This document shows positions 11,100 to 33,626 of a DNA stretch of 33,626 nucleotides, in pieces. Source of the DNA: a virus (lineage: Duplodnaviria > Caudoviricetes). The notes under the pieces were generated by a model. It did not search any database, was not told the origin of the DNA, and worked only from the letters and a program-made list of their open reading frames with translations. The first letter of the stretch is position 1; every line of letters starts with the position of its first letter. The translations under genes and the position numbers were made by a program. The stretch is from positions 1-33,626 of the IMG/VR virus record IMGVR_UViG_3300033487_000029, one strand, 5' to 3'.

Positions 11100-11236
11100 C
11101 ATGTGACGAAAGTCATATGACCCATTCGTGTTGTTACTTTCGTCATATGTGTTGTCTTAGACACACTTGTTTGCCAATTTGGCAAAACGACTCGTTCTTG
11201 ACATTTTGGCAAAACTGGGGTAGTGGTCTTGACAGA
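11100..11236 (+). promoter_or_regulatory. Late-operon control region with palindromes
   Basis: CATGTGACGAAAGT...ACTTTCGTCATATG inverted repeat; TTTGCCAA-T-TTGGCAAA palindrome (11170-11186); second TTTGGCAAAAC next to TTGACA (11198-11203). Confidence 0.55.
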
Positions 11237-13683: not shown

Positions 13684-13686
13684 GCG

Positions 13687-15713: not shown

Positions 15714-16074
15714 GCGCGCACAAGGACCGCTCGGAGATCCCGAGGTTCAGGGACGGCTCAAAGAGTTGGGCGTCAAGGTCGATTCACAGCAAGCGGCCGA
15801 TTTCGACGCGGTCATGAGGATGCCCCAGGGCCGGCGATTTTTCTATGTGCTCGTCTTCCTGATCGGCCACCTCGAGTCGCCGTCCTACGACAATTCCGGC
15901 CAGTCGATGGCTTTCCGCGAGGGTCGGAGGTCGGTAGCCATCGAGCTCCGCGACTGGGCGCTCGCGGTGTGCCCCGACCTTTGGCTTGAGATGATCTCCG
16001 AGCAAATCTCCGCCGCGCAACAGAAGGCTGAAGAGCGGCGCAACGCAGCACGAAAAGAGGAGCAGTCAACATGA
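15703..16074 (+). CDS. Bbp19-like phage protein
   Basis: VMRMPQGRRFF...MAFREGRRSVA motif; GTG 15703 with GGAGG RBS. Confidence 0.8.
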   Translation: MRHERAQGPLGDPEVQGRLKELGVKVDSQQAADFDAVMRMPQGRRFFYVLVFLIGHLESPSYDNSGQSMAFREGRRSVAIELRDWALAVCPDLWLEMISEQISAAQQKAEERRNAARKEEQST

Positions 16075-16859: not shown

Positions 16860-16861
16860 TC

Positions 16862-17857
16862 ATGGCTTCTGTCAGACTGACACTCTCGGAGTACGCGAAG
16901 TCGATGGACCCCGATGGCGCACAGGCGCAGATCATCGAGGTGTTGAACCAGGTAAGTCCAATGGTGCAGGACGCGACCATCAAGGCGTCGAACGCACTGC
17001 TCGGCAACACAACCACGATCCGGAAGACTCTGCCGGCCTTCGCATCAGTGAAGATCAACCAGGGCGTGGATGCGTCGATCAGTGTGACCGAGCAGAAGGT
17101 CGACACGATCGGGATGTTCGAAGGTGCGGCTGAGACGGACGCGCGTCTTCCGGGCATTCTCGGGATGGCCGACTTCGAGAAGAGGCGCCGGCAGGACCTC
17201 CTCGCATACGCCGAGGCGGCAGTGCAGACGATCCATCAGTACTTGCTGTACGGATCGACCCTCACCGATGAGGCTGGTTTCGACGGGTTCATGCCCCGCA
17301 TGGACGCGCTGAATACAACCAACCGGCAGAACTCGATCGTGCAGAGCATGGGTTCCGTGACTGGTTCGGACGGCTGCTCGGTGCTCGTGGTCGACTGGGG
17401 CGACAACGCCTGCAACCTGCTCTATCCAAAGAACAGCGTTGCCGGCCTCGAGACGATTGATGAAGGCAAGGTCCGGGTCACCGACTCTGACAGCAAGGCC
17501 TTCATGGCCTACCTGACCACCCTGCGCTGGAAGATCGGTCTCGGCGTCGACGACAAGCGGCACATGGGCCGGCTCTGCAACATCGACCTGTCCGATTCGC
17601 TGCTTCTCTCCCCGACGCAGGGCTCTCTGTACCGGGAGCTCACGAAGCTGCTCAACCGGATGCCTCCTCCGGGAACCGCGAAGAGGGTGCTCTACGTGCC
17701 GCTCGAGCTCTATACGGCGTTCCATCTCCAGGCCATGGAGAAGAGCAACCTGGCTCTGTCGCTGCAGGAGTACTTGGGCGTCTTCGTTCCGCACTTCCTG
17801 GGGAATCCGATTCGTCAGGTCGAGCGGATGGCGGTGAACGAGTCGACGGTCAGCTAA
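16862..17857 (+). CDS. Major capsid protein (BPP-1 Bbp17-like)
   Basis: 331 aa; IIEVLNQVSPM, FDGFMPR, LLYPKNSVAGL, FLGNPIRQ; strong codon bias. Confidence 0.9.
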   Translation: MASVRLTLSEYAKSMDPDGAQAQIIEVLNQVSPMVQDATIKASNALLGNTTTIRKTLPAFASVKINQGVDASISVTEQKVDTIGMFEGAAETDARLPGILGMADFEKRRRQDLLAYAEAAVQTIHQYLLYGSTLTDEAGFDGFMPRMDALNTTNRQNSIVQSMGSVTGSDGCSVLVVDWGDNACNLLYPKNSVAGLETIDEGKVRVTDSDSKAFMAYLTTLRWKIGLGVDDKRHMGRLCNIDLSDSLLLSPTQGSLYRELTKLLNRMPPPGTAKRVLYVPLELYTAFHLQAMEKSNLALSLQEYLGVFVPHFLGNPIRQVERMAVNESTVS

Positions 17858-17893
17858 GGGGACCGCCAAACAACTTTCACAAGGAGAAACACA

Positions 17894-18328
17894 ATGATTC
17901 TCGACTTCATGGATGAGTTCACGACAAGCGGCGGACAGGCTGTCACTGCCGACGCAATCGGTACCAAGGTGAAGGATGCAGGGTCCGGAAACACCCGGGA
18001 CCTGGGAAGGGGTGAGGCGATCTACCCCTACATCCGGATCACTGCGGATGCGGCTGCAAACCCGACCACTGGCGAAACGGTCGACATCGTCGGCGCGGAC
18101 AACGCGGCTCTCACGAGCAACGTGGTCGTCCTCTCGACCACGTACATCCTGGCCGCAGCGCTGACGGCCAGCTCCGTTCATCAGATGGCACCGCTCAAAG
18201 GCAACGTTCAGAAGCGCTACCACGGGTGTCGCTTCGTGAACACAGGCGGAGCTCCGAGCACTGGGAAGTGGATCGTCGGACTCGTCGACAAGAGCGCCCG
18301 GCCGCAGAATGAGGAAGCGCAGCTGTAG
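17894..18328 (+). CDS. Capsid cement/decoration protein (Bbp16-like)
   Basis: MILD...F...QAVT, RDLGRGE, KRY motifs; AAGGAG RBS. Confidence 0.85.
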   Translation: MILDFMDEFTTSGGQAVTADAIGTKVKDAGSGNTRDLGRGEAIYPYIRITADAAANPTTGETVDIVGADNAALTSNVVVLSTTYILAAALTASSVHQMAPLKGNVQKRYHGCRFVNTGGAPSTGKWIVGLVDKSARPQNEEAQL

Positions 18329-18361
18329 TTGGTGGGCCCTAGGCCAACCAGAAAGGGAAGT

Positions 18362-18769
18362 ATGAGAGCCAGATACCTGATCACGGAGCACCCTGGGGCC
18401 TACATCCGAGGACTCGGATTCTTGGTCCCCGGCCGGTACTTCGAGGCGCCCTCGGACGACTACGTCCCCGCACGTAGCTTCCAGGCGCTGAACGAGGCCG
18501 GCGTTGCTGGGCTGAAGACGCTCAAAGAGCGCCTCTTGGCGAAGGCGAAGGAGTACCAGGCGAAGGCCGAGTCGAATGCGCTCACGAGCGGTCGACGTGA
18601 GGCCTTCGGCGACGCAGCGGCCAACCTCGAGGCGGAAGCAGAGCGGATCGTGCTAGAGGTGGTCGGAACCCCGAAGGAAGAGGTGAAGGTCACCCCGATG
18701 GTCTCGCTCAAGGCGATGGATGAGGCCGAGCGGGGAGTGAAGGCGAAGCGCGCAGCGGATCGGCAGTGA
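18362..18769 (+). CDS. Hypothetical virion-region protein (135 aa)
   Basis: ATG 18362 after AGGGA; position after the cement gene. Confidence 0.7.
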   Translation: MRARYLITEHPGAYIRGLGFLVPGRYFEAPSDDYVPARSFQALNEAGVAGLKTLKERLLAKAKEYQAKAESNALTSGRREAFGDAAANLEAEAERIVLEVVGTPKEEVKVTPMVSLKAMDEAERGVKAKRAADRQ

Positions 18770-18778
18770 GTTCTGATG

Positions 18779-18804
18779 CCCGGGGAGGGGCGACTCTCCC
18801 CGGG
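18779..18804 (+). terminator. Strong hairpin after the capsid genes (weak U-tract; attenuator or stabiliser)
   Basis: CCCGGGGAGGG-GCGA-CTCTCCCCGGG followed by only TT. Confidence 0.5.
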
Positions 18805-18818
18805 TTGAGGTGTCGAGC

Positions 18819-19448
18819 ATGGCGGCAACCCTAGTCGAGATCTTCAACCGGGCGCTCACTAAGATCGGCGAGACGGAGTTTTTGACCGTGTCGACCGGGA
18901 ACACCTCGATCGCCGGCAAGACCTGTGAACTGCACTGGGCAGACATCCGAGACGAGGTGTTGTCGGACTTCCCGTGGCCGTTCGCGAATCGACAGAAGGC
19001 GATCGTGGTCGACGCGACCGAGTCGCGCACGGGTTGGGAATACGCCTTCACGCTTCCGACCGACTTCCTCATGGCTCGGTTTCTGCACACACAAGACACC
19101 CGGATTGCGCTCGTGGCGCCCGAGAGCCGGGACGCCTACGAGATCGCGCTGAACGAGGATGGGGACGGAAAGTTGCTGTTCTGCGACTATGCCGCGGCCG
19201 ACATCCAGGCGCTGGAGTACACGGCACAGGTGACGGATGTGACGCTCTACTCGGCCGCGTTCTGCGACGCGGTGTCATGGCGACTCGCGGTTGAACTGGC
19301 GCTTGCACTGCCGAAGGATGAGCGGAAGGCGGGGGCGGCTCTGCAGATGTACAAGCAAAAAATCCTCGAGGCGTTCGCACAGCAGTTGCGTGGCAATCGA
19401 GAGGACTACGAACCTTTGGAGGGCTCGGGAATCCGGGCGCGCGAATAG
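18819..19448 (+). CDS. Tail tubular protein A / adaptor (T7 gp11-like)
   Basis: VEIFNRALTKIG, FPWPFA, WEYAFTLPTDFL, FCDAVSWRLA. Confidence 0.85.
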   Translation: MAATLVEIFNRALTKIGETEFLTVSTGNTSIAGKTCELHWADIRDEVLSDFPWPFANRQKAIVVDATESRTGWEYAFTLPTDFLMARFLHTQDTRIALVAPESRDAYEIALNEDGDGKLLFCDYAAADIQALEYTAQVTDVTLYSAAFCDAVSWRLAVELALALPKDERKAGAALQMYKQKILEAFAQQLRGNREDYEPLEGSGIRARE

Positions 19449-22400
19449 TGCCGATCGTTCGACAGACCTCTTTTGCGGGTGGCGAGCTCAGTCCGGAATG
19501 GCATGCTCGAGCCGAGCTGGACCGGTACAAGATCGGCGCGAAGTCTCTGCTGAACTACCTCGTAGCACCAAGCGGGAAAGCTCCAAACAGACCCGGCTCC
19601 CGGCTTTGCGAGTGGGAAACCATCTCGGATTTGGTCGCGGTTCGGCTGTCGAGCAACGGCGCCGTTACGTCGGTCGCTGGAACATCATGGGCCGCGAAGA
19701 CTCTACCCTCTACAGCTTCTCGCTACGCTGTCGGATCGAACGGATACCGGTTCGTGACCTCTGGTGGTACCGCGGCCGTGTGGGAAGTCTCGGACGATCG
19801 AGGTGCTACCTGGACGACCAAGACCAAACCGGACACCAATACGATGTATCGCGTGTTCTGGGACGGTGGATACTTCCATGCGGTCGGTGAGACTGGGCAT
19901 ATTGAACGGTCCGTCGACGGCGGCGAAACATGGACCACTCAGACGATGAGTCCGGGTGTTTCGCTTACATCAATCACAGGTGGTTGGTTCAATAGCATTT
20001 ACGGGTTGGTGTCGATTGGCGCATCCGGAAAGTTTTTCCGATCAGTCAACCGTGGTGTGAGTTGGGCATCAGGCAATTTGCCACGAAACGCGACTTATAA
20101 CGACATCGCGTGCAACGGCGCGGGGATGATGATTGCCGTTTGTAGCGGGTACATCGCCAGATCTGTCGACAACGGAGCGACCTGGACAGAACAAGCTTTG
20201 ACCGGTAACCACACCTGTGCGATCTACGCCTCTGGTTATTGGTGGATCTTCGACGCATCAACAAACGTGACCTATCGGTCGACAGACGGAAAGACCTGGA
20301 CCGCTGGGACCAAACCAAACACAGCCACCCCCAACAACGCCGTGTGGACTGGGACCTATGTGGTGGTGGCGTATTCGACTGGATTCTTCTACGGCCCGGT
20401 CGACGGTTCCTCTTGGACGGCGGTCGCGGTATCAGGCGACTGGCGCGGAGTCGCGACCCTGCATGACGCCTCAGAGACAACTCATCCCCGTCTAGTCCCG
20501 TTCGTCTTCTCGGATGAGCAAGCGCTTGTAGTCGAGTTCCGGGGCGGCGCGATCAGGTTCCTTGAGGATGGCGCTTATGTCGAGGCGTCTGGGGTTCCGT
20601 ACGCGATCACGTCGCCATACGCCGAGAGCGATCTGCCGCGCCTGAAGTTTGCGCAGATGGGCAACATCATCACGATCACACACCCGAGCTACTCACCTCG
20701 GGAACTCGTCAGGACGGCTACGAGTCCGCTCACTTTCACGTTGACGGCGATCGCCTTCGACGCTCCGGCGTGTCCAATCACATACGACGATCAGGATCCA
20801 ATAGTGGTTTTGGGATTCCATCAATCTACCGTGGTCACTGGGCCGACCAAGAGATGGATTTGGTGGTTCACATGTCTCTGTGAAAGCTTGGACGGTACCA
20901 GGCAATGGGAAACGGCCCCCTATACTGGGACAATTGCCTTATGGGACTACGACGTGGCGGCCTGGAGTCCCAGCACAACATATGGGCTCGGGGATCGCGT
21001 ATCGTCGCTGGGAACCTATGTCAGCCTATTGCCTGGAAACGTAGGGAATCCTCCCGCTACCAGTCCAACATTCTGGGCTCTCGAGGCCGAATACGGGAAC
21101 GGCGTGTGGGGAGGTGGGTCAACCAGGCCATACGACACGGACGGACTGTCACTGTCAGAGCAAGAACCGGTGCTCTGGATATCGGGGATTGCGCAGCCCA
21201 CAACCCACAACATTGTAGCTCTTTGCGTATACAGGGGCCTGAGCGATGTGGTTGGGTTGGTGTATCAGAAAAAATGGTGGGTATGGACTGGGAGTCTTCT
21301 GCTACAAGTTAACGACTTCGGAGAAATCGATCCAGACTATCTGACCCGGCCGCCAAAAGGAGAGAACCCTTTCAATGTTCTTGATGAGGATCGGGTGGTT
21401 CTAAGGACCGAAGATCCGGCAACGGTTGCCTATCAGGATGAGCGGCTCATATTTGGCGGGACAGCCGAGCGCCCAAATTACCTGTTCATGTCTCGAGTCG
21501 GGGACTGGAAGAACTTCGATCAGTATCCGATCGTGAAGGATGATGATTCGATCTCGGTCGGACTCGCCGGCCGGCGCTTCGAGGAGATCCGGTCTCTTCT
21601 TCCTGGCCGCTCCCTGCTGACCTTCACAGCCATGAGCGAGTGGGCGGTCGATGGAGGTCAGCCGGATCAACCGATGACGCCCACAGCCATCTCCGCGCGC
21701 ATCCGGTCAGAGCGCGGCTCGACGTGGCTCGATGCGCTGAAGGTCGGCGATGATCACGCGCTCTTCGTGCAGCGCAAAGGAACGGTCGTTCGGGATCTCG
21801 CGTTCGACGGCGCCGCGGGGACGTACGTCAACGGCGATCTATCCCTGTTCTCACACCATTTGTTCGTCGGAAAGCAAGTAGTCGATTGGTGCTGGCAAGA
21901 GGACCCGTGGTCGATCGTGTGGGCGATCTTGGATGACGGCTCCCTTGTCACCTTGACCTTCATGCCAGAATACAAGGTTCTGGCGTGGTCTCGACATGTG
22001 CTCGCGGACGTCGGAGTAGCCGAGTCGATCTGCTCGATCCCTGAAGGTGAAGAGGATGCGGTCTATGTGATCGTCCGGCGCGGGTCCATTCGATCGATCG
22101 AGCGATTCGCCACGCGGCAGGTGACGAGCGCAACAGAGTCCATTTTCTTGGATTCCTCGGTGAGTTACACCTTCGGGACCGCCACCACGGCGATCACGGG
22201 GCTCGATCACCTGGAAGGTCGAGTGGTGTATGCCGTGGCGGATGGTCTCGTTCAAGGTCCCTTCACGGTCGCGTCCGGCGCCATCACGTTGACTACAGGC
22301 GCCCTGCGGGTTCACGTCGGTCTGCGGTACTATGCGGACTTCGAGTCTCTCGACGTTCCCCCGGGGGAAGGGAAGACGCAGCGCAAGGTCGTCAAGACCG

Positions 22401-22648
22401 CCTGGGTAGAGCTCGAAGCATCGGCGGGGCGCATCCAGGCCGGCGAAGATTTCACGTCTGCCAAGTTGCAGACGTGGTCAGGAAATGAGGCCGATCAGGT
22501 ATCGGCCGTCTCTGGTTTGAAGACTGGACAGGCCAGGATACCGACGATCTCCCATTGGAATCATGGGGGTCGTGTTTGCGTGCGGCAGAGTGATCCTTTG
22601 CCTTGCACGATCCTTGCAGTCACGCGGGAGGTGGAATATGGTCAATGA
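19448..22648 (+). CDS. Tail tubular protein B / nozzle (T7 gp12-like) with inserted Asp-box propeller and CBM-like module
   Basis: QTSFAGGELSP...RPGS N-terminus, RLVPFVFS, YQDERLIFGG, SRVGDWKNF, WSRH, GLDHLEG, QSDPLPCTIL. Confidence 0.9.
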   Translation: MPIVRQTSFAGGELSPEWHARAELDRYKIGAKSLLNYLVAPSGKAPNRPGSRLCEWETISDLVAVRLSSNGAVTSVAGTSWAAKTLPSTASRYAVGSNGYRFVTSGGTAAVWEVSDDRGATWTTKTKPDTNTMYRVFWDGGYFHAVGETGHIERSVDGGETWTTQTMSPGVSLTSITGGWFNSIYGLVSIGASGKFFRSVNRGVSWASGNLPRNATYNDIACNGAGMMIAVCSGYIARSVDNGATWTEQALTGNHTCAIYASGYWWIFDASTNVTYRSTDGKTWTAGTKPNTATPNNAVWTGTYVVVAYSTGFFYGPVDGSSWTAVAVSGDWRGVATLHDASETTHPRLVPFVFSDEQALVVEFRGGAIRFLEDGAYVEASGVPYAITSPYAESDLPRLKFAQMGNIITITHPSYSPRELVRTATSPLTFTLTAIAFDAPACPITYDDQDPIVVLGFHQSTVVTGPTKRWIWWFTCLCESLDGTRQWETAPYTGTIALWDYDVAAWSPSTTYGLGDRVSSLGTYVSLLPGNVGNPPATSPTFWALEAEYGNGVWGGGSTRPYDTDGLSLSEQEPVLWISGIAQPTTHNIVALCVYRGLSDVVGLVYQKKWWVWTGSLLLQVNDFGEIDPDYLTRPPKGENPFNVLDEDRVVLRTEDPATVAYQDERLIFGGTAERPNYLFMSRVGDWKNFDQYPIVKDDDSISVGLAGRRFEEIRSLLPGRSLLTFTAMSEWAVDGGQPDQPMTPTAISARIRSERGSTWLDALKVGDDHALFVQRKGTVVRDLAFDGAAGTYVNGDLSLFSHHLFVGKQVVDWCWQEDPWSIVWAILDDGSLVTLTFMPEYKVLAWSRHVLADVGVAESICSIPEGEEDAVYVIVRRGSIRSIERFATRQVTSATESIFLDSSVSYTFGTATTAITGLDHLEGRVVYAVADGLVQGPFTVASGAITLTTGALRVHVGLRYYADFESLDVPPGEGKTQRKVVKTAWVELEASAGRIQAGEDFTSAKLQTWSGNEADQVSAVSGLKTGQARIPTISHWNHGGRVCVRQSDPLPCTILAVTREVEYGQ

Positions 22649-23387
22649 GGCATCCGGGGCACACGGTGAAGTCTTCGAAATCCTAGACGGGTCCCCGACC
22701 GAAATCGTACTGAGCGCAACTCCGGGGACTTACGCGAAGTGGATCAGTGGATCACAGGGGCTCATTGGTTCCCAGGGCCTAGTGAAGTTCGAATCGAACG
22801 CGCTCGACACGTGGTCGGCGCTTACTCGGTATCCGGTCGGATCGGCCGTTTCGCACGGCGGACACGACTGGACATCCATCGAAGCCTCGTTGGATGCTTG
22901 GGCAGTAGACACGACCTACGCGGCCGACGCTCTTGTGAGCAAAAATGGAGAGGACTACGTGAGTCTTGCGGCGGACAACGTCGGACACGATCCCGCCGAG
23001 GCTGGGAGCGATTGGTGGGCGCTCGGCAATCTGAACCAGGAGCCGACCGCAGAAAGCACCTATTGGACCGACAACGGTGAACGTGGCGATCGGTTGGTCA
23101 TCCAGGAAGGCGGAGCCGGAACCTACCGCGTATTCGCCAACATCAGCGCCGAGGGAGATCCGCCAACCACGTTCACTTGGGGGGTTCACAAGAACAACAC
23201 CCTCGTTCTTCAGATGCTTTCCAGCGCTGTGGCGGTCGAGGGTATCCGGTACCCGCTGACTATCACGGGCTTGGTTCGCCTCATCCCTGGGGACTTCCTG
23301 GAGTTGGCGGTATCTGGAAGCGCGGGCAGCGAGACCGTCACCATCTACTGCCTGGAATTCTCAATCGAAAGGATCTCCGAGGACTGA
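22638..23387 (+). CDS. Putative tail-associated adhesin: C1q/TNF-like beta-sandwich with inserted CBM5/12-like repeats
   Basis: W-x5-Y-x5-V repeats; GTYRVFANIS and LIPGDFLEL; ATG 22638 with GGAGGT RBS. Confidence 0.6.
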   Translation: MVNEASGAHGEVFEILDGSPTEIVLSATPGTYAKWISGSQGLIGSQGLVKFESNALDTWSALTRYPVGSAVSHGGHDWTSIEASLDAWAVDTTYAADALVSKNGEDYVSLAADNVGHDPAEAGSDWWALGNLNQEPTAESTYWTDNGERGDRLVIQEGGAGTYRVFANISAEGDPPTTFTWGVHKNNTLVLQMLSSAVAVEGIRYPLTITGLVRLIPGDFLELAVSGSAGSETVTIYCLEFSIERISED

Positions 23388-23388
23388 C

Positions 23389-23994
23389 ATGGTTCGCGTC
23401 CGACCCCACGCCGCCCTTGATGGTCCCGAGCTCGCTCGACGTATGCGGGTCCGGGACTGTGATGAGGTGTGGGCGTCGGACCATCAAATTCCCCTGGAAG
23501 CGATCGAGGTCGCATGCTGTGTCAGCGAGTTCGTCCGGACGATCGTAATCGACGGCGAGATCGCGGCCATGTTCGGGGTTCGCGCGATTCGTCCAGAAGT
23601 GGGCATCATCTGGCTGCTCACGACCGACACGGTTGACCGGAAGCCCTGCGCATTCTGGCGCACGATGAAGACCGAGCTCCTCCGGCTCCTGAGAGTCTAT
23701 CCCGCGCTAGCAAACATGGTCGACGCGCGCTACACGCAGGCCGTCGAGTCGCTCAGGCGCGTCGGGTTCACAGTGCATCCCGCGGAGTCCTATGGCGAAG
23801 ACGGGCTACCGTTTCATTTCTGCGTCATCCGGAGGTCCAATGCCAATTGCACAGGAGCGAGCGCTCAAGGCGGTCGCGTCGAAGATGGCCAAGAGCGGCA
23901 AACTGAAGAAGCAAAAGGGCGATACCTCGAAAGAGGCGCGAGACCGCTTCGTGTACGGCGTCATGCGCAAGAGCGGCTGGAAGCCGCAACGTGA
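23389..23994 (+). CDS. Internal virion protein A-like (T7 gp13 / GNAT-like)
   Basis: MRVRDCDEVWA, AMFGV, IWLLTT, LANMVDAR...LRRVGF; the last ~50 aa overlap the next gene. Confidence 0.8.
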   Translation: MVRVRPHAALDGPELARRMRVRDCDEVWASDHQIPLEAIEVACCVSEFVRTIVIDGEIAAMFGVRAIRPEVGIIWLLTTDTVDRKPCAFWRTMKTELLRLLRVYPALANMVDARYTQAVESLRRVGFTVHPAESYGEDGLPFHFCVIRRSNANCTGASAQGGRVEDGQERQTEEAKGRYLERGARPLRVRRHAQERLEAAT

Positions 23995-24004
23995 AAGGGG
24001 GTAG
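23840..24004 (+). CDS. 54-aa highly basic protein (MPIAQERALK...FVYGVMRKSGWKPQRERG)
   Basis: GGAGG RBS at 23831-23835, ATG 23840; GC3-rich codons in this frame. Confidence 0.75.
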   Translation: MPIAQERALKAVASKMAKSGKLKKQKGDTSKEARDRFVYGVMRKSGWKPQRERG

Positions 24005-24454
24005 GTGATGGGCGGCGCGGGTCTAGTCCAGGTCGGAAGTCAACTGCTCGGGAACATGCTGGGCGCCTCAGAAGAGGCTAAGGCGGCTGGCCAGACGGCT
24101 GCTCAGGCTCGGCGCAACGCGGTCCTGTCCGAGTACGCGGCCAAGGATGCGGAAGCTCGTGGCGCATCGGAAGCGGCGGCCATCACTTCGAAGGGGACTC
24201 GGACGATCGCTCAGGCTCGTGTCGCTACGGCTGCGAGCGGGATCGAGCTCGACAGCCCGACCGCTCTGAATGTCGCGAGCACAACCCGGGCCTACAGCGC
24301 CCTTGACGCCCTCACGGCGAAATCGAACGCGGCTCGCGAGGCTTGGGGGTACCGTTCAGAGGGCGAGCAGTACACGAGGGCCGCGAAGCAGGCGAGCAAA
24401 AAGTCAGAGTTGACTCCGATGTCGCTCTTTACCGGTCGTAGTGGGGGCTTCTGA
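24005..24454 (+). CDS. Internal virion protein B-like (T7 gp14-like ejection protein)
   Basis: Ala-rich; AASGIELDS, NAAREAWGY motifs. Confidence 0.8.
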   Translation: MMGGAGLVQVGSQLLGNMLGASEEAKAAGQTAAQARRNAVLSEYAAKDAEARGASEAAAITSKGTRTIAQARVATAASGIELDSPTALNVASTTRAYSALDALTAKSNAAREAWGYRSEGEQYTRAAKQASKKSELTPMSLFTGRSGGF

Positions 24455-26313
24455 TGCCTCGAGTCCCGATCATTGACGAGCCCTCCCTTCGTTCGGCCCC
24501 ACTCCCCTCGTTCCGGCAGAATCTACGGTTCGAGCCCGGGCAGGCTGGGCAGGCCATCAAGGCTACAGGGCAGATGGTCGGTCAGGTCTGGAATGCGGTC
24601 GCCGAGGAGAAACAGAAGGCGGACGCGGCTCGAGCGGTTGAGGAGTTGGGGGCGTTCACCCGAGAGGCCGATGCGGAGTTGTTCGACCCCACGGTAGATG
24701 AGGCGTCGAAGCAACCCAAAGGCTACACCCTGAAGCGCGGCAAGGTGGCGTTTGCCGACCGGGACAACACCCAAGGCCGGATCGACGCGCTTGTCGAGCA
24801 GCACGCGGCCAACCTCGTGAACGATGATCAGAAGGCGGCCTTTCTGGCACAGGCGCGCGAGAAAGTCAATAGCTACTCGCGACAAATCCAGGTTCATGCC
24901 GGGCGCGAGGCCGAGAACGCGCAGAGCCAAGCCTACAAGATCAACCGGGAAGCCGGGCTACAACACGTCGCCAGCTTCGCCGACGATCCGGCTGGCAGGA
25001 CTGAAGGGATCGAGTCAGTCACGGCGGCGGCCGACGCAGAGGCTATCACGCTTGGACTGGACCCGGAGGCTCGGGAGAAGTGGGTCAGGATCGCCGAGAC
25101 GGACGCTAGGGTGTCCGCGCTCAACTCCCTACTCTCTCGCGGCAACATCCGGGAAGCGGAGTCCTTCTATGCCGCCTCGAAAGACAAGCTCGGCGACAAA
25201 GGAGACCGGATTGCGCGCCAGATCGAGGAACTCCGGATCGCCAACGTGGTCGAGCAGAAGGCAAGCGAGATCGTCGCTGCGTCCCTGATCCCCGGCACGT
25301 CTTGGGCGGCGGTCGGAAAGGCTCAGGCGGCCGTCGAGGCGATGAAGGACGTGAGGCCCGAGGAGAAGCAGAAGATCCGGCAACTTGTCGAGCACCAAGT
25401 AGCGAAGCTCGAGCAGACGCGGACGGACGCGGCCGAGCGCTACATGTCTTATGGGCTCACCGTCTACAATGAAACGGGGACCCTGCAGTCGCCGGCCATG
25501 GCTCCTGTTCGAGCGTGGTTGCTCGACCCGGTGAACGGAGCGGCAAACTACTGGCAGAGAATCGTCAACGTCGACGATCAGCGGAAGGCGTTGGGGCGGA
25601 CCTCGAGCGCCGAAGAGCGCCGAGCTCAAGCTGAAGCAAACGCCCTCGTTCGCGCCGAGTACCTAGCCCTTCCTCCCGGCGTTCAGGTCCGGACCGACAT
25701 TGATGCGAAGTACGCCGGCCGAGCCGATGACACTACTCTCTACGACTTGAAGCGCATTCAGAACGCCAGCAAGAAAGTGGTTGACGGCGGCGGACTCGCA
25801 AGTGAGACGGAGTTTCAGCGGTTCGCCACGAAGGCCGCGAAGGATGCCAAACTCCCAAAGGACGTGGCGGCCGACTTCGTCATGTCGATCGCGGACTGGC
25901 GGGTCAAGTATCTCGAGGACCATGACGGTCAGGAGCCGACCCGTGCAGAGATGAAGGCGGCGGTCGCCGATCAACTCTTGTTCGGGGAGCGCGCCGAAGG
26001 CGAGGGAGTCAAGGGCTGGTTCCAACCGAACCGATACAAGTTCCAGGCCGAGGAGAAGGGCGAAAAGTTCGTCCCATTCCCGGCCGAGGAGCAACCGTAC
26101 ATGGGGGCAAAAGCCGAGCAGTACCGGCAGACGGCGGCCAACAAAGAAGAGCTCGGGGCGGTTCCGCTTCCGTCCGCGCCCTCTCCATCGGTCCCTGTCG
26201 GTCCCACGGCGGCGCAAAAGGCCGAGATCAAGGCTACCTTTGAGGCCCGCGGCAAGAAGCCCACAGAAGAGCAGATTCTTCGGGTGTGGCGCGCTCGGGA
26301 GGGCATTGAATGA
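24454..26313 (+). CDS. Internal virion protein C-like (gp15-like ejection protein)
   Basis: 619 aa, predicted helical; MPRVP start; synteny with neighbouring ejection genes. Confidence 0.75.
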   Translation: MPRVPIIDEPSLRSAPLPSFRQNLRFEPGQAGQAIKATGQMVGQVWNAVAEEKQKADAARAVEELGAFTREADAELFDPTVDEASKQPKGYTLKRGKVAFADRDNTQGRIDALVEQHAANLVNDDQKAAFLAQAREKVNSYSRQIQVHAGREAENAQSQAYKINREAGLQHVASFADDPAGRTEGIESVTAAADAEAITLGLDPEAREKWVRIAETDARVSALNSLLSRGNIREAESFYAASKDKLGDKGDRIARQIEELRIANVVEQKASEIVAASLIPGTSWAAVGKAQAAVEAMKDVRPEEKQKIRQLVEHQVAKLEQTRTDAAERYMSYGLTVYNETGTLQSPAMAPVRAWLLDPVNGAANYWQRIVNVDDQRKALGRTSSAEERRAQAEANALVRAEYLALPPGVQVRTDIDAKYAGRADDTTLYDLKRIQNASKKVVDGGGLASETEFQRFATKAAKDAKLPKDVAADFVMSIADWRVKYLEDHDGQEPTRAEMKAAVADQLLFGERAEGEGVKGWFQPNRYKFQAEEKGEKFVPFPAEEQPYMGAKAEQYRQTAANKEELGAVPLPSAPSPSVPVGPTAAQKAEIKATFEARGKKPTEEQILRVWRAREGIE

Positions 26314-29300
26314 CGCGCTCTCTCGATGACGCGGTGGATCAAGTCCTAGCAGAGGACTCGGGAGCTCCGGCCGGAGGCGGCGATCTGGGTGTCACGGAGC
26401 CCCTTCCGAAGGGACCGGTTACCGAACCTCTCCGGATGGTCCGCGAGCCTAAGGGCGCTCTACTTGAGAAGGCGAAAGAGGCCGCGCGATCGGCTAGCAT
26501 GCAGGCGGTCGATACCGAAGTCCAGAAGAGTTCCCTCGATGCTGCGGTCGACAACGTCATCGAGGAAGATGAGTCAGCGCTTGACGGGCAGATCGGTGCG
26601 TTGCATGAGGCGAGTCTGACCCGGAACCCAACCGATCACGCGGCCGTGCTCGACATCGCGAAGCGGACAGGGATCGGTGCCGATATCGTCGAGCAGAAGT
26701 TGCCCGAGTTCCGCCAGAAAATGCAGGCGGCAGGGTTCGACGCGAGGAAGTTTCGCGAGGACAATCCGGCACTTGCTCAACTTCTCCTCGAGAACCCGGA
26801 ACTCGGTCCGGTCGCGTTTCACGACAAGAGCATCCCAGTTCTGACCCAGGCCCTTCGGTTCGCTGGTTCGTTCTTCCGGCCCGAGATCGTGATGGGGACC
26901 GAACCAGTCCAGACGGAGGCTGGCGAGTCCATCCCGGTGGATGTGACCAAGGAAGGGCTGCCGACCTACCCGACTCCGACAGGCCGGAAGGTGTTCCGTG
27001 AAGGGAAGTGGGTAGAGCAAGAGCCGATGGTCGAGAGCCCGCTTGCGACCGATGCCAGCGCCGCTGGCCCGCGCCCGGGCGATCGCCTTCAGCGCATGGT
27101 CGCCGAGACCTTCGCGCAGGGACAGAAGACGGTCGAGCTCGGCCGGCTCGGGTCGGAACTCATGGACCGGCGCAAGATGGGGCTCGATACCTGGGACCTC
27201 GAGAAAAAGGTCGCCGACATCCAGAATCAGGCCGGCCAGCGCTGGTACAACGCGGGGCCGTTCGAGCAGCTCGCACTTGATGCAGCGGAGCTCCTACCCT
27301 CCTCGCTGTCGGCCCTCAAGGGCGCAGGAGTAGGAGCGGGCCTAGCGGGCGGCGCGGTCGGAGCGGTAGCGCTCGCGGCTACAAAGAGCCCGGCGATTGC
27401 GGGCCGTGCGGCCTTGAAGGCGGCGGCGGTCGGGTCGCGGCCTGGGGTGTTCCTGGCCGCAAGAACCCTAGAACGCGGGACATGGTACCTCGACAATCTT
27501 GGCACGAAAACTGACGATGGGAAGGTAATCCCTGAGCCTGTCATCCGCGGCATGGCGGAAATGTATGGCATCAATTCGGCTCTCATAGAGACCGCATTTT
27601 TCCCGGCCGCCATGAAGATGTTTGGTCCAGTTGGCGATGCGATGGCGGCCGGTACCGGGAAGGCTTTCTTCGCGGGACTCCTTCGGAACCCGGCAGCACG
27701 GCAGGTTTTTGCAGACTTCGCCAAACGCGGGCTTGGCGGAGCGATCGCGGAAGGAAAAGAGGAAGCCCTTCAGAACGTTGTGGGCGACGCGATCGGTTGG
27801 ATGATGAAGGTCTACGCGGCCTCTCCCAACCTTCTCCCTTGGAACGTAGTTCCCCAGAAAGCCGACCCTGTCGCGTCGATGGAAGACGCGATCGCGGCTG
27901 GTACCAAGGCGTTCAAGGGTTCACTGATCCCGGGCCTTGCGGGCGGCTCGGTCAACCTTGGCACTACGGTTGCAATGGACATGTACCAAAGGGACCTGGC
28001 GCACGCATCCGGCGCGAAGGTTGCAGCGCTCGCGCAGGTGGCCGAGACGAGCGAGACCGCTCGGGCGGCGCCGCAGGTCATCGCCGAGATGGTCCAGCGC
28101 GAGACTGAGCGGAGCGGCGAGAAGGTCTCTAACCTGTACGTCGATGCGCAGGCCTTCGATCGGCTCTTCCAGGGCGGCGAGCAGACGAGCGAGCAGGCCA
28201 TCGTCGAACTCATGGGCGAGGAGGGCCCACAGAAGCTTAAGGAAGCGTTGCAGGGCGGCAGCCAGGGCCGACTCGAGATACCGGTCGGCGACTACCTGGA
28301 GAAGTGGGGCGGGAAGAAGATCGCCAAAGCGCTCGCCGAGGATACGACCACGCGGCCGGGCCTGCTCACTGTTCGCGAGCAGGTATCGCAGGACAAGGAG
28401 ATCGAGACCCGTCGCAAGGCGCTTGTGGCCGAGTACACGGCCGAGAACGCTCCGGCGCCTGAAAGTACGGCAGAGCAGCGGCTAGTCGAGGCGGTAGGCG
28501 CTCAACTCGCCAATACCGGCGTCTACAAGCCGGCCGAAGCAAAGCAGGCCGTGTCGCTTACAAGGGCCTTCCTGCGCACTCAGGCCGAGGTCGCGGGAGT
28601 CGACCCGGACACCCTTTTCAGCGACTACGCCCTGACGGTCGAGCGCGAGTCGCAAGCCGCGCGGCCGACAACGGCCCTCACCCAGCAACCTGCCGAGCAG
28701 ATGGTGCCCCCTACGGTCGAGGAACAGGACCGGGCTCGGTGGGCCGCTCTTCCGGCCACACAGCGCGAGCGCGAGATGTTCATTGACCCTGGGACAGGGC
28801 TCCGGAATGAGCGAGCTTTCGCGGCCATGCCGGCCGATCCCTCGCGGCCGATGGTAGCTCACATCTCCGTCGAAGGTGTGAAGTACGCGAACAAGGCCGG
28901 TCATGAGGTCGGGAACGCGCTCTATGCGGCGGCGGCTCATGCGCTCGCTGGGGTCGTTTCGGATGTGGCGAAGGTCAAGGGTGACTTCGCGGTCCGCGTC
29001 AAGGATGAAGCTGAGCTTGCGGACATCCTGAAACGCGCGAACGAGGCCATGCCGGCGCAGGGGTTCGCCATAACTGGAGCGCTCGGGTCCACATTGAAAG
29101 AGGCGCAGGACGCGAATATCGCCCAGAAGACGGCGGCCGAGGAAGCGGGAACGCGGTCGGTGCGCGGAAAGAGGCCGAAGGGGCTTCCGTCTCGTTCATT
29201 CCGAGAGTTCCTGCGCGAGGTCTGGCAGGGCCCGCGGCCGGACGTGGTCTCGGCTCACCTTGCAGCCGTCGAGGGTACGGTCATTGACTACACCCTAAAG

Positions 29301-32300
29301 GCCGCGTTCCGGGCTATGCCTGAGGAAGAGAGCTTCAAGGCGGTCCACATCGACCCCACGACCGGGTTCCTGTCTCAGCAGGGCTTTAAGGCGCGACCGG
29401 CAAAGGCTCACGTCGTGTCGCTCGATCTGAATAAGCTCAAGAAAATCAACAACCTGTTCGGTGACGCTGGCGGAGATGCGTTTCTAGCCGCATTCGCAAA
29501 AACGGCCAGGAACCTTGGGGTTCACGACTTCGACTTCGCTCACTTCTCGGGTGACGAGTACGCGGCCCAATCGGATGACCCGGTCCTTCTCCAGGCCCTC
29601 ATTGACGACCTAGGCGAAAGGTGTGATAATGTAAGCGTCAAGATGCCGGACGGTACGATCCTGAAAGGGATCACGTTCGGATACGGGATCGGGGCCGACT
29701 ATGCCACAGCCGACAAAGCCGTCGAAGCCCACAAACGCCGGGGAGTGGGACGGGAAAGAAAAGCCCGTGGCGATCGTGATCGGAGACGAGGAAATACCAA
29801 CCGCGGGGCTCTCGGCGGAAGAGTTGAGCAAGCGGCTCGAGGCGGCGTTCGCGAAGCTGGATCGGAAGATCTTAGCCAAGCGACGGCGATAGGCCCCCGG
29901 CTCGCGCAGCCCGCCTACCACGGCAGTCCTCATCGGTTCTCACGGTTCACGCTTGATCACATCGGGACAGGAGAAGGCAACCAGTCGTACGGGTGGGGTC
30001 TGTACTTCGCGGGCCGTGAAGACGTGGGGGAACGCTATCGGCGTCGCTTAGTAGGTCGTGGTGCAGAAGAGGGCGAGGAGCGGTTTTCAGGTGTCACTTA
30101 TAAAGGACGGTATATCGACGCAACTGTTCCGGCTGCACAGTTGTCGGCCGAAGATAGTGCAGTCATACAATACGCTCTCTCGAACAACAATCTCGCCATA
30201 GCGCTCGAAGAAGCACGAGACATGGCGAGGCTCACTGACCTAAAACGCGATCGAGAGGTCGTCTCGGTCCTAGAACGATTTGATTCAACGGGAGAGATTT
30301 TTGGTCAGGTTCGGAAGGAATATGGACAGACCTATAAAGTCGACATCCCGGCAGACTCGGAATTCCTGTCCTACGACAAGCCGATCTCCGAGCAGTCGCC
30401 CGCGATTCAGAAGAAACTCGCTCCGATTATGGAGGCCGTGAAACAGCACCATCTCGCTGGCATCGCGGAATACGAAGGTAGCGAAGAATACGAAGAGGCG
30501 GCCAAAGAGCAGATAACCGGATTCTCGGTGTATTCAGCGCTCGAGGATGATGCGCGGTCGCAGGGGCCGTTGACTGCCGAGGCTCGCAAGACTGCACAAA
30601 GCTCGGCCGAGGCTGCATCACGCACACTCCTCACCCTCGGCATTCCCGGTCTCCGCTATCTCGATCAGGGCTCCCGTGCCGCAGGTGAGGGCACGCACAA
30701 CTACGTCATTTGGGACGAAAGCGCAATCAGGGATCTGGAAACCTTCTACCAGGGCGCGCGCGGCTACGTCGATCGCATGCGGGAGGGGATGAAGAAGATC
30801 TTCCGCGTCGTCCTCACCGACAAGGCCGACCTGTCGACGTTCCTGCACGAGTCGTCTCACGTCTTCCTCGACGTGATGGGGGATCTCGCGGCCCGCCCCG
30901 AGGCGACTGAGCGACTGCGGGCGGACTGGGCGAAAACACTTGAATGGCTTGGCGCGAAGGACGCGAGCGAGATCACGATCGAGCAGCATGAGAAGTGGGC
31001 CCGCGCGTTCGAGACCTACCTCCGCGAGGGCAAGGCTCCGAGCGCGGCGCTCGCTGGCGCATTCCAGCGATTCAAGCTGTGGCTGACCCAGATCTACCGC
31101 GCGCTCGCTCCTGGCGATCTCGATGACGAGATCCGGCAGGTCTTCGATCGCATGCTCGCCACGGATGAGGAGATCGCCCGTATGCGTCGAGCGATGGGCG
31201 CGGAACGGTCGCTCTTCCGGACCCCCGAGGAAGCCGGCATGACGGCGGCCGAGTTCCAGGCCTACCTGGACTCGAAAGAGAAGGCCTTCTCAAGGGCGAC
31301 CGAACAGACCCAGCGCCGAGTACTCAAGGATCAGATCCAGGCGACGCGGTCCGTGCTGAAGGCCGAGCGCTTGAAGGCCCTAGAGGACGCAGGCCGCGAG
31401 TACGACGCACGGACCGAGGTAGTGGCGGTCGCCTTCCTAAAGGATGGCCAGGCGGGCGAGAATGAAGCCCTGAAAGCGCTCCTATCTGAAGCCGGAACGA
31501 AAGTCGGTCTCGACCTCAACGCGGTCTCGGCTGTGGTCGGCGAAGACGTGTTGAAGACCGCCTTCCGCGGGCTCACTGAAGCGGGTGGCTTGGCTCCTGA
31601 CGAGCTTGCGGAGATGGTGGGCGCTCCGGACGGTGAGACGCTCGTGAAGGCGATCGCCGAGCGGCCGGACAAGGTCGAGTGGTCAAGGAAGCGTGCGGAT
31701 GAACTTCTCGCCGAGCGCGCTCCTGACCTGGCGGCCGAGCAAGAGCGCCTCTCGAATGCGGCGGCCGAGGCGCTTCACGAGGAAGGGAACTCCGACTGGC
31801 TCCTGAAGGAATGGCAGGCACTCCGGCAGCGACGCGGCGGCGAGCAGGGGCAGGCGCCGCTTGAGGCGATCCGACTCGCAGCGCGGGACATCGTCGATGC
31901 GACTCCGGTGGGTCGGCTGTATCCCGGGCGCGTCCTTGCGGCGGAGCGCTCGGCGGCCAACAAGGCGGCCACGGCGGCGGCCAAGGGTGACTGGAAGCTT
32001 GCGGCGGTCGAGAAGCAAAAACAGGTGCTCAACCACTACCTGCACCGCGAGACGACCAAGGCGCTCGAAAACCGCGACCGACTGGAGAAGCTCGCCGGCA
32101 AACTCACCGACCGGAAACGGCGGGAAGCCATCGGAAAGGGCGGCAAGTCCTTTCTTGACGCGACCGACACGATCCTCGAAGCGCTGGGGTTCAAAGAGCC
32201 TGAGACGAACCAAGCTGCGTTGAACGATCGCGCGACTACTCCCGAGTGGATGAAGGCCCTCGAAGAGCAAGGCCTCCTCCCAGCGTTCGCCGGGGACCGT

Positions 32301-33626
32301 CTCTCGGCCATCCTATCGCGACCTCCCGCGTCCTGGCGCGACCTCGCTGTTGCCGACGCGGAGATGATTCGGACCGCGCTCTCTCAGCTCTGGACCGCGG
32401 CCCGGGACGTGAACCAGGTGATGTTGCTCGGCCAGCGCGTCCAGATCGAGGAGGTCATTCGGCAGATCGGCGAGGATACCAAGGATCTACCGAGACAGCC
32501 ACGGCCCCCGGCTTCCGACTCGCAACGTACGGTCTGGTACCGCGGGAAGCAACTCTGGCAGGGCATCTCAGCGGCCTTGCTCGATCCCGAGCAGATGTTC
32601 CGCGACATGGGCGAGACCGCTCGGCGACTATTCTGGGACCGGTACACGGAGCAACGGGCCATTGAAGACGGTTTGGCCGAACACGTCCTGAAGTTCTTCA
32701 TGGAGAAGTGGGAAGCCATGCCGGGCGAGCTTCAGGCCAGGAAGCACGACCTTCTCCCGGCCTCGGAACTCGCGAAGCTTCCATACCCCGACGACGTGCG
32801 GCGAGACGGCGCTCTACGCGATCGGGCTTGGATGTACATGCTCGCCCTCAACATGGGCAACCGGTCGAACATGGAGCGGCTGCTCGGCGGCTACGGCTGG
32901 GATGAGCAGACGGTGCGCGCCTTCCTGGCGAAGAACATGAAGTCCGAGGAATGGGACTTCGTCGAGGGCGTCTGGAAGCTCATGGATGACGAGCTCTATC
33001 CCGCCATGGCGAAGCAGTACGAGCTCGCGAACGGAGCCAAACCGGACAAGATCGAGGCGCTCCCGTTCGTGCTCCCTGATGGGCGGGTGATCCGGGGTGG
33101 CTACTTCCCTGCTCGCTACGACCCGATCGCTTCGAGGCTCGGCGCCGAGCAGCGCGAGGAGGCCCTTACGAAGCTCAACGCTGGACCGTCCGCGCAAGCC
33201 ACCATCATGAAGAGCTTCACCAAGGGCCGCACAAAAACCTACACGGACGTGATCAACCTCCAGTGGGCCGAGGTGCCGCGCCATGTCGCGCAGGTGATCC
33301 ATTACGTCGCCTTCGACTCGTACATCCGAGACGCGGGCCGTGTGCTCGCCGGAATGCAGGGTGTGGTGGGAGATCGCTTGGGCGAGAAGTACTACACGCA
33401 GATGAAGCAGTGGTTGCGTGTGGTGGCGTCGCCCACGGCCGAGCTCGATCCTGAGCACCTTCGAGACGTGAACTGGTTCCTTGGCGAGCTTCGGTCTCGG
33501 TTCGTGACTTCTACGTTGGGCTTCTCTCTTTCGGTCGCGGCTGGCGACCTGACAAACGCCTTCGTCGCGATGGCGGGCGGTAGGACAAAGGCGCGGTTCG
33601 CGCTCCCGGCTGTCGTGATGGGCCTC
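26310..33626 (+). CDS. Giant internal virion/ejection polyvalent protein (>=2439 aa, 3' truncated): tandem GGDEF-like, ART-like and HExxH domains
   Basis: ATG 26310 overlaps the upstream TGA. No stop in the stretches I translated, and its absence from the ORF track implies it is open to the window end. Contains a Gly/Ala hydrophobic segment (~27320-27460), GGDEF-like domains (28776-29140, 29346-29742), an ART-like domain (29913-30720) and ADLSTFLHESSH...HEKWARAFETYLREGKAP (30825-31040). Confidence 0.9.
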   Translation, partial: MTRSLDDAVDQVLAEDSGAPAGGGDLGVTEPLPKGPVTEPLRMVREPKGALLEKAKEAARSASMQAVDTEVQKSSLDAAVDNVIEEDESALDGQIGALHEASLTRNPTDHAAVLDIAKRTGIGADIVEQKLPEFRQKMQAAGFDARKFREDNPALAQLLLENPELGPVAFHDKSIPVLTQALRFAGSFFRPEIVMGTEPVQTEAGESIPVDVTKEGLPTYPTPTGRKVFREGKWVEQEPMVESPLATDASAAGPRPGDRLQRMVAETFAQGQKTVELGRLGSELMDRRKMGLDTWDLEKKVADIQNQAGQRWYNAGPFEQLALDAAELLPSSLSALKGAGVGAGLAGGAVGAVALAATKSPAIAGRAALKAAAVGSRPGVFLAARTLERGTWYLDNLGTKTDDGKVIPEPVIRGMAEMYGINSALIETAFFPAAMKMFGPVGDAMAAGTGKAFFAGLLRNPAARQVFADFAKRGLGGAIAEGKEEALQNVVGDAIGWMMKVYAASPNLLPWNVVPQKADPVASMEDAIAAGTKAFKGSLIPGLAGGSVNLGTTVAMDMYQRDLAHASGAKVAALAQVAETSETARAAPQVIAEMVQRETERSGEKVSNLYVDAQAFDRLFQGGEQTSEQAIVELMGEEGPQKLKEALQGGSQGRLEIPVGDYLEKWGGKKIAKALAEDTTTRPGLLTVREQVSQDKEIETRRKALVAEYTAENAPAPESTAEQRLVEAVGAQLANTGVYKPAEAKQAVSLTRAFLRTQAEVAGVDPDTLFSDYALTVERESQAARPTTALTQQPAEQMVPPTVEEQDRARWAALPATQREREMFIDPGTGLRNERAFAAMPADPSRPMVAHISVEGVKYANKAGHEVGNALYAAAAHALAGVVSDVAKVKGDFAVRVKDEAELADILKRANEAMPAQGFAITGALGSTLKEAQDANIAQKTAAEEAGTRSVRGKRPKGLPSRSFREFLREVWQGPRPDVVSAHLAAVEGTVIDYTLKAAFRAMPEEESFKAVHIDPTTGFLSQQGFKARPAKAHVVSLDLNKLKKINNLFGDAGGDAFLAAFAKTARNLGVHDFDFAHFSGDEYAAQSDDPVLLQALIDDLGERCDNVSVKMPDGTILKGITFGYGIGADYATADKAVEAHKRRGVGRERKARGDRDRRRGNTNRGALGGRVEQAARGGVREAGSEDLSQATAIGPRLAQPAYHGSPHRFSRFTLDHIGTGEGNQSYGWGLYFAGREDVGERYRRRLVGRGAEEGEERFSGVTYKGRYIDATVPAAQLSAEDSAVIQYALSNNNLAIALEEARDMARLTDLKRDREVVSVLERFDSTGEIFGQVRKEYGQTYKVDIPADSEFLSYDKPISEQSPAIQKKLAPIMEAVKQHHLAGIAEYEGSEEYEEAAKEQITGFSVYSALEDDARSQGPLTAEARKTAQSSAEAASRTLLTLGIPGLRYLDQGSRAAGEGTHNYVIWDESAIRDLETFYQGARGYVDRMREGMKKIFRVVLTDKADLSTFLHESSHVFLDVMGDLAARPEATERLRADWAKTLEWLGAKDASEITIEQHEKWARAFETYLREGKAPSAALAGAFQRFKLWLTQIYRALAPGDLDDEIRQVFDRMLATDEEIARMRRAMGAERSLFRTPEEAGMTAAEFQAYLDSKEKAFSRATEQTQRRVLKDQIQATRSVLKAERLKALEDAGREYDARTEVVAVAFLKDGQAGENEALKALLSEAGTKVGLDLNAVSAVVGEDVLKTAFRGLTEAGGLAPDELAEMVGAPDGETLVKAIAERPDKVEWSRKRADELLAERAPDLAAEQERLSNAAAEALHEEGNSDWLLKEWQALRQRRGGEQGQAPLEAIRLAARDIVDATPVGRLYPGRVLAAERSAANKAATAAAKGDWKLAAVEKQKQVLNHYLHRETTKALENRDRLEKLAGKLTDRKRREAIGKGGKSFLDATDTILEALGFKEPETNQAALNDRATTPEWMKALEEQGLLPAFAGDRLSAILSRPPASWRDLAVADAEMIRTALSQLWTAARDVNQVMLLGQRVQIEEVIRQIGEDTKDLPRQPRPPASDSQRTVWYRGKQLWQGISAALLDPEQMFRDMGETARRLFWDRYTEQRAIEDGLAEHVLKFFMEKWEAMPGELQARKHDLLPASELAKLPYPDDVRRDGALRDRAWMYMLALNMGNRSNMERLLGGYGWDEQTVRAFLAKNMKSEEWDFVEGVWKLMDDELYPAMAKQYELANGAKPDKIEALPFVLPDGRVIRGGYFPARYDPIASRLGAEQREEALTKLNAGPSAQATIMKSFTKGRTKTYTDVINLQWAEVPRHVAQVIHYVAFDSYIRDAGRVLAGMQGVVGDRLGEKYYTQMKQWLRVVASPTAELDPEHLRDVNWFLGELRSRFVTSTLGFSLSVAAGDLTNAFVAMAGGRTKARFALPAVVMGL
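29701..29892 (+). CDS. Nested +1-frame 63-aa protein overprinted inside the giant gene
   Basis: Protein-like sequence (VAIVIG strand, then helix AEELSKRLEAAFAKLDRKIL). The main frame turns Arg/Gly low-complexity and loses its GC3 bias here. RBS is only weak (GGGG). Confidence 0.6.
   Translation: MPQPTKPSKPTNAGEWDGKEKPVAIVIGDEEIPTAGLSAEELSKRLEAAFAKLDRKILAKRRR

Follow-up and report, generated by a model that had tools for sequence, protein, structure and literature searches.

The DNA analysed here, hereafter the window, is a podophage contig of 33,626 nucleotides (positions 1 to 33,626 of IMG/VR record IMGVR_UViG_3300033487_000029; all features given below lie on the + strand). The last and largest gene of its internal-virion block, a giant open reading frame (ORF) that runs past the window end, encodes two consecutive GGDEF domains, and this tandem pair is a real, conserved family. 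From the distribution of residues between the two halves, we propose that the pair is an active single-site enzyme, to which we assign a probability of about 0.75.

Both domains have the GGDEF fold. Domain 2, the predicted metal-binding catalytic half (aa ~1003–1146; 29316–29747), gave a PF00990 match (aa 1029–1085) together with palm-fold matches. Domain 1, the metal-less half (aa ~815–958; 28752–29183), gave no GGDEF match in single-sequence searches, but its family profile matched solved GGDEFs (HHalign against domain 2, 99.5%; Atlas, 0.96) and its secondary-structure elements follow the same order as those of domain 2. A preliminary description, made from the sequence alone, had assigned a pair of GGDEF domains to the largest internal-virion gene and had looked to PF00990 to find them; the placement is borne out, while the PF00990 search recovered domain 2 only, domain 1 being recognisable as a GGDEF through its family profile. 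Domain 2 carries D1039, N1047, D1056, the signature H1078-F-S-G-D1082-E1083-Y (HFSGDEY; 29541–29561), D1135 and K1142, and is without the conserved His and an RxxD I-site. Domain 1 retains D826, K858, N861, H865, N869 and K888 as well as a C-terminal GxRxxRGxxP motif. Within its strand 1 and helix 1 (28866–28916; S853, K858, N861, K862, H865, N869), Ser853 occupies the position of the lost metal Asp, and its signature hairpin is shortened to KVKGDF (28971–28988). The linker (aa ~959–1002; 29184–29315), defined as the gap between the profile matches, has a median length of 33 aa (range 24–101) across the family. By the canonical diguanylate cyclase pattern, a metal Asp plus GG[DE]E[FY] in each domain, domain 2 qualifies (SGDEY) and domain 1 does not.

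To describe the family, we combined a region search (47 proteins) with a profile search of 1.84 billion representatives (276 at E ≤ 1e−30, the best 150 of the 276 being used). The survey of homologues envisaged in the preliminary description was thereby realised: 178 of the 190 proteins retrieved contained both domains whole, and the 12 left out comprised four solo-domain proteins and eight fragments. A 70% identity filter gave 160 rows with a median pairwise identity of 30%, the basis of all counts out of 160. Catalytic and binding residues were assigned by motif and spacing. In domain 2, D1039, G1081, D1082 and E1083 were each present in 160/160 rows, as was K/R1142 (160/160), followed by D/E1135 (158/160), H1078 (149/160) and the base readers N1047 (141/160) and D1056 (127/160). 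Domain 1 kept K858 (157/160), N861 (157/160), the Asp following the N861 position (132/160), H865 (159/160), D/N869 (155/160), D826 (155/160) and K/R888 (151/160). Its metal site was gone: Asp at 853 occurred in 7/160, a G[DE][DE] hairpin in 0/160 and an acid at both metal positions in 0/160, and 41/160 had none of the three acids; an acid at the D1135 equivalent was found in 5/160. Domain 2 had the His at the aligned column in 9/160 (24/160 with a His anywhere nearby) and the Asp of the cross-subunit contact in 46/160. The Lys, Asn and His retained by domain 1 are residues that bind guanine or reach across a GGDEF dimer. Of the two possible composite sites, one was complete in 156/160 rows and its mirror image in 0/160. 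RxxD was absent from the canonical I-site position (0/160), occurring elsewhere nearby in domain 2 of 11 rows and domain 1 of two. As judged from this alignment, the true asymmetry between the domains is catalytic, domain 1 having lost its metal ligands. These counts also support the earlier suggestion of an intramolecular pseudo-heterodimer, and do so more strongly than at the outset because the halves keep complementary residue sets. Overall, the preliminary interpretation is therefore supported for the pair and the pseudo-heterodimer, and not for the base specificity discussed below.

In the proposed mechanism, the two domains would fold against each other in one chain to create a single composite active site, joining guanine nucleotides without a partner chain or an activating signal. 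One GTP would sit in domain 2 with two Mg2+ (D1039, D1082, E1083, K1142). The base of the second nucleotide would be gripped by N861, D/N869 and K888 of domain 1, which would also reach over the interface with K858 and H865, and the 3′-OH of this nucleotide would attack the α-phosphate of the one in domain 2. Since the mirror site is dismantled, each binding event would yield only one bond. Linear pppGpG would appear first, and its rebinding in reverse orientation would close the ring to cyclic di-GMP (c-di-GMP), as in the single-site cyclases DncV, cGAS and Cas10; for DncV and cGAS, the ring is described as closing at one site by turning of the linear intermediate. We give even odds to c-di-GMP, made by way of pppGpG, being the product of the composite site.

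Catalysis in one direction is proposed because the retained residues would serve the domain 1 to domain 2 bond, while those needed for the reverse bond are missing. In the mechanistic model for DgcR, Lys K179 acts on the α-phosphate of the substrate bound by the partner subunit; H187 reaches D282 of that partner, and this His, together with the Asp behind it, touches an Asp and a Tyr across the dimer (PMC8041772). The equivalent pair of contact residues is kept here in one sense (His in domain 1, 159/160; Asp/Glu in domain 2, 158/160) and not in the reverse (9/160 and 5/160). For GacA, the third motif residue is reported to hold Mg and the fourth, a Glu, to be needed for activity (PMC6456294); this Glu was found in domain 2 of 160/160. 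The S/AGDEF variants are described as active cyclases (PMC13725321). As the pair has neither a sensor domain nor an I-site, a small number of injected copies would give an unregulated burst at entry.

An AlphaFold model built with 37 sequences had a predicted local distance difference test (pLDDT) of 91.9 and a predicted template modelling score (pTM) of 0.87 over both domains, with lower pLDDT (66–80) in part of the linker. The pTM implies that the domains form a confidently packed unit, and they are predicted to lie face to face. The best inter-domain pairs in a mean-field coupling analysis, 869–1080 (rank 5 of 49,203) and 862–1138 (rank 26), both fall at the expected interface. K/R862 co-occurred with E1139 in 9/9 rows, including this phage, an apparent charge swap across the predicted interface; K862 (28893–28895) and E1139 (29724–29726) stand where most relatives have D and N.

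The origin of the pair may be traced through its solo relatives. Four solo phage GGDEFs (P0045, P0047, P0048, P0049) all carry both residue sets together with the GxRxxRG tail of domain 1; unlike the pair, such proteins keep the full set and must dimerise. In a quick tree of 30 sampled pairs and the solos, domain 1, domain 2 and the solos each fell on one side of a branch (Shimodaira–Hasegawa-like approximate likelihood ratio test, 92, 86 and 92; none at starred support). This fits, without proving, a single duplication followed by division of labour between the copies, through which the logic of Cas10 Palm1 and Palm2 was likely re-evolved from a GGDEF domain. Cas10 is described as having one pseudosymmetric site between two palms, only the second of which bears the catalytic motif (PMC11734703, PMC13294483), and its Palm1 as keeping an Asp for the triphosphate of its nucleotide. 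Like these synthases of cyclic oligoadenylate or S-adenosylmethionine-AMP (SAM-AMP), the pair places two palms in one chain with the catalytic acidic motif only on the second, and is predicted to make one bond per cycle. In contrast to Cas10, it has GGDEF-lineage motifs (DxxxxKxxNDxxGH, HxSGDE) and guanine-type base readers, has no HD, linker or D4 domains, no CRISPR RNA (crRNA) complex and no target activation, and is phage-encoded in a structural operon with polyvalent-protein domains and no type III CRISPR locus. The likeness is likely convergent.

Differences from other nucleotide cyclases were also apparent. Unlike the canonical diguanylate cyclases PleD, DgcR and WspR, the pair is not a symmetric two-site homodimer, has neither a sensory input domain nor an RxxD I-site, and has a His in place of the Arg before the signature. 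It resembles the Hypr GGDEF synthases of cyclic GMP–AMP (cGAMP), GacA, GacB and Bd0367, in having Asp at the third signature position and in the loss of most cross-dimer Arg residues, and the Hypr cGAMP pathway is reported to be used by myxobacteria (bioRxiv 10.1101/600031). However, the defining Hypr Ser/Thr at the base-reading position is missing (N869, D1056) and occurs in 2/160 relatives. The mCpol/OptS proteins of Panoptes, as described for that system (PMC12657218), are host-encoded, consist of a single oligomerising palm without a GGDEF motif, and make 2′,3′-c-di-AMP or 3′,2′-cGAMP. The closest precedent is Iyer et al. 2017 (PMC5512222), who listed GGDEF among the domains of polyvalent proteins and proposed interference with host nucleotide signalling or exclusion of rivals. 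The pair agrees with their GGDEFs in being embedded in a very large late-gene product alongside LPD, ART-like and HExxH domains, and the same role is proposed here, namely interference with host nucleotide signalling or the repelling of rival elements. It differs from their account, which treats a GGDEF domain, in the tandem arrangement, the split site and the host association, although their supplements may list such architectures. No description of a tandem one-site GGDEF form was found among the open-access papers listed. What is known is a GGDEF in an injected phage protein; what is new is that the residues are divided reciprocally to leave one composite site, that the module spreads as a unit, and that it is linked to Myxococcota.

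The giant ORF (26310–33626; 2439 aa within the window, 3′ end open) likely encodes a protein of 2767 aa in full. It follows three internal-virion genes (23389–26313; phrog_308, phrog_418/T7 gp14-like and a gene in the gp15 position, from Pfam/PHROGs scans) and so occupies the gp16 position. The preliminary description had compared it with T7 gp16; this is right as to gene position, but the Pfam/PHROGs scans found no gp16 family, and no direct comparison with T7 gp16 was made. An LPD22 domain, a polyvalent-protein marker, lies at aa 103–168 (26616–26813; PF18834, 30.4 bits against a cut-off of 28.6). Directly after the GGDEF pair begins an ART-PolyVal-like region (aa 1203–1245; 29916–30044), a weak match below cut-off (E 0.009), and a zincin-type metallopeptidase motif, HESSH, is found at aa 1513 (30846–30860). 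The C-terminal part matched phrog_9880 (aa 1473–2409, E 8e−180) and 53 deposited phage records, all at <60% identity, among them phage AF gp16 and Carin-1 gp32, both encoded in the same position as the giant ORF. With LPD22 above cut-off, GGDEF, a weak ART-PolyVal match, HExxH and a late virion gene position, the protein is, by its domain content, an LPD22/phrog_9880 polyvalent protein in the sense of Iyer et al. 2017. Gene position and the fusions to N4-like virion RNA polymerases described below indicate that it likely forms part of the virion and enters the host cytoplasm along with the phage DNA; there, self-processing by the HESSH motif could free the GGDEF module. A Gly/Ala-rich hydrophobic stretch ahead of the pair (aa 339–357; 27324–27380), which has the highest hydropathy in the protein, is a candidate membrane-inserting segment. 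The ART-PolyVal-like region (29913–30750) was found in only 18/154 long relatives; those without it have PBECR5, ParB or a virion RNA polymerase at the same place.

We further investigated the occurrence of the pair across phages and its fusion partners. Two motif scans recovered 17 loci on 15 viral contigs, and in 16/17 loci (14/15 contigs) the pair lay in a giant ORF downstream of a nozzle homologue. Among carriers of >2000 aa (n = 154), 142 shared the C-terminal region of the giant protein, 148/154 had an HExxH downstream of the pair and 7/154 were N4-like virion RNA polymerases. In shorter carriers, the partner was a Toprim-like domain akin to plasmid DUF3991/TOPRIM proteins (above cut-off in P0146, below it in P0150 and P0188), an inorganic pyrophosphatase (InPase; P0167) or DarA_C (P0182). 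Five of these proteins (P0146, P0150, P0178, P0187, P0188) are 640–780 aa long with the pair N-terminal, three of them with the plasmid-type Toprim-like C-terminus, and the module may have entered conjugative elements. A third architecture (P0162, P0167, P0175, P0182) has InPase or DarA_C domains and, in one case, a repeated GPRGG-containing motif, which suggests head-packaged proteins of other phage types. All the fusion partners of the pair are of kinds regarded as typical of proteins delivered with invading DNA (PMC5512222).

In host genomes, two motif scans returned 148 loci, nine of which scored >55 bits. Eight of the nine were in Myxococcota bins (seven with both domains, one with domain 2 only) and the ninth was on a 1.1-kb contig of a Sideroxydans bin. 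When phyla were sampled evenly, with five candidates scored per genome and many genomes incomplete, the pair was found in 7/401 genomes around an Archangium genome (centre included), compared to 0/401 around Methylobacillus and 0/401 around Humidesulfovibrio, a significant enrichment in Myxococcota (Fisher test, P = 0.0013; 6/400 vs 0/802). One copy, on a 524-kb contig near tRNA genes and together with homologues of the terminase, portal and capsid of the window, lies in a prophage. The hosts of pair-bearing phages are likely myxobacterial. In Myxococcus xanthus, c-di-GMP is reported to inhibit type IV pilus motility strongly and cGAMP signalling is present (bioRxiv 10.1101/600031). In such hosts, the product of the pair would dampen motility driven by type IV pili or interfere with nucleotide-based defence.

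Several observations weigh against the single-site enzyme and its assigned product. The split is not clean everywhere: K/R1044 persists in domain 2 of 124/160 rows, and D892 and K940 in domain 1 of 102/160 and 87/160, respectively. All listed fold matches of the model cover domain 2 only and are single GGDEFs, with no Cas10 chain among the top 50. After tree correction, the couplings reduced to 8 and 3 independent pairs and were not significant (sign test, P = 0.5 and 0.25). The accounts of the fourth-motif Glu in PMC8041772 and PMC6456294 disagree on its role. The pair occurred in 0/50,697 deposited phage records, and activity, product and virion location are inferred for every family member. 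The cross-dimer Arg, which is reported to favour guanine (PMC6456294), was kept in only 37/160 (domain 1) and 31/160 (domain 2), and guanine specificity is uncertain because of this loss and because Asn often replaces the guanine-reading Asp. The ligand of domain 1 may not be a nucleoside triphosphate (NTP) at all, since this domain has lost the triphosphate Asp that Cas10 Palm1 keeps.

The base-reading position is itself variable: domain 1 had N in 86, D in 69 and Q in 5 rows, and domain 2 had D in 127, N in 31 and T in 2. The domain 1/domain 2 combinations were N/D (67), D/D (55), N/N (18), D/N (13) and Q/D (5), with Thr in domain 2 in the remaining two. This phage has N861/N869 in domain 1 and N1047/D1056 in domain 2. 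The preliminary description had read its Asp (domain 2) and Asn (domain 1) as a switch towards a hybrid product. This is not upheld, as all four D/N combinations occur in the family, the two positions changed 16 and 20 times on the tree, and the Ser/Thr that marks Hypr enzymes (PMC6456294) was found in 2/160. The two proteins concerned (P0099, P0186), with a Hypr-like Thr in domain 2, are candidates for a different product. Guanine is our best guess because both halves keep Asn plus Asp/Asn. Nevertheless, the rarity of the cross-dimer Arg and the missing triphosphate Asp of domain 1 make other products possible. We regard as a tentative alternative that the same single-site enzyme makes something other than c-di-GMP, as a decoy or jammer of nucleotide-signalling defences. 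The candidates are pppGpN in linear form, a cyclic oligonucleotide like those of Cas10, a hybrid dinucleotide, and a conjugate with a nucleoside other than a triphosphate (GMP, a host signal or an RNA end) presented by domain 1. One site would favour chain growth or mixed products, as described for Cas10, and the SAM-AMP-making Cas10 is reported to have the equivalent residues changed for its non-NTP substrate (PMC13294483); the triphosphate-binding residues of domain 1 are kept in only 7/160 (Asp) and 87/160 (Lys). The loss of the guanine-favouring Arg in most members, the frequent changes at the base-reading positions and the two Thr rows point the same way. It is opposed by the guanine-type Asn and Asp/Asn in both halves (N861 157, D/N869 155, N1047 141 and D1056 127 of 160) and by the near absence of the Ser/Thr of adenine-accepting enzymes.

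It is unlikely that the pair, clamping nucleotides between two guanine pockets, binds or breaks down GTP, c-di-GMP, cGAMP or a defence signal as a sink or hydrolase. The triphosphate Lys of domain 2 (K/R 160/160) and its two invariant metal ligands fit an NTP substrate, the Lys assigned to the α-phosphate in models of synthesis (PMC8041772) is retained in domain 1, and a few copies per virion would make a poor stoichiometric sink. The fusion of P0167 to an inorganic pyrophosphatase fits pyrophosphate release; such domains are common in polyvalent proteins. Ejection proteins are oligomers, and domain 2 by itself has metal ligands, base readers and, in 124/160, the Lys, and groups with solo phage GGDEFs in the tree. 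It might thus act as a normal cyclase by dimerising with its counterpart in a second copy within the oligomeric ejection complex, leaving domain 1 as a separate regulatory or structural module. We consider this very unlikely, as the cross-subunit His and mostly the Asp of the solos are lost from domain 2 (9 and 46/160) and kept in domain 1 (159 and 132/160), the pair moves as one unit into unrelated proteins, and the model packs the halves together. A more elaborate and doubtful scenario is that myxobacterial phages re-invented the Cas10 layout from a GGDEF gene as an injected synthase of a messenger other than c-di-GMP, such as an oligoguanylate (linear or cyclic) or the product of linking a guanine nucleotide to an acceptor that is not an NTP. 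This might pre-empt nucleotide-based immunity, for example by topping up the decoy signal watched by Panoptes-type systems, and virion RNA polymerases, head proteins and conjugative Toprim proteins might have acquired the same module as an effector of general use at entry.

Elsewhere in the window, Pfam/PHROGs scans identified a podophage structural block (11051–22648) with terminase subunits, portal (PF12236), protease, GP7-type major capsid, adaptor and nozzle. The nozzle protein has 1066 aa with BNR repeats and is followed by a 274-aa protein with two carbohydrate-binding modules of the CBM_5_12 type (19448–23387 together), placed between the nozzle and the internal-virion genes. The gp15-position gene (24454–26313) matched only the N-terminal third of two endolysin PHROGs, with no lysozyme domain detected in the same scans. 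A tRNA-Met(CAT) gene (2999–3070) lies inside an ORF (2812–3102), and one of both predictions may be spurious. Near it, an RLIG1-like RNA ligase (3536–4105; PF17720, phrog_14301) could form part of an RNA repair module.

No experimental test of the 2017 proposal of injected GGDEFs was found in the literature searched, and solo phage GGDEFs are awkward to assay because forced dimerisation is needed. The pair, as a self-contained 340-residue fragment with a confident model and mutations that separate both halves, makes the question of injected GGDEF enzymes testable in one liquid chromatography–mass spectrometry experiment, and the Myxococcota link points to hosts and integrated prophages to work with. 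If active, the pair would be a phage-delivered second-messenger synthase at work before any phage gene expression. It would also mean that the Cas10-type pseudo-dimer had arisen independently, and would provide a naturally occurring GGDEF enzyme without dimerisation control or feedback inhibition.

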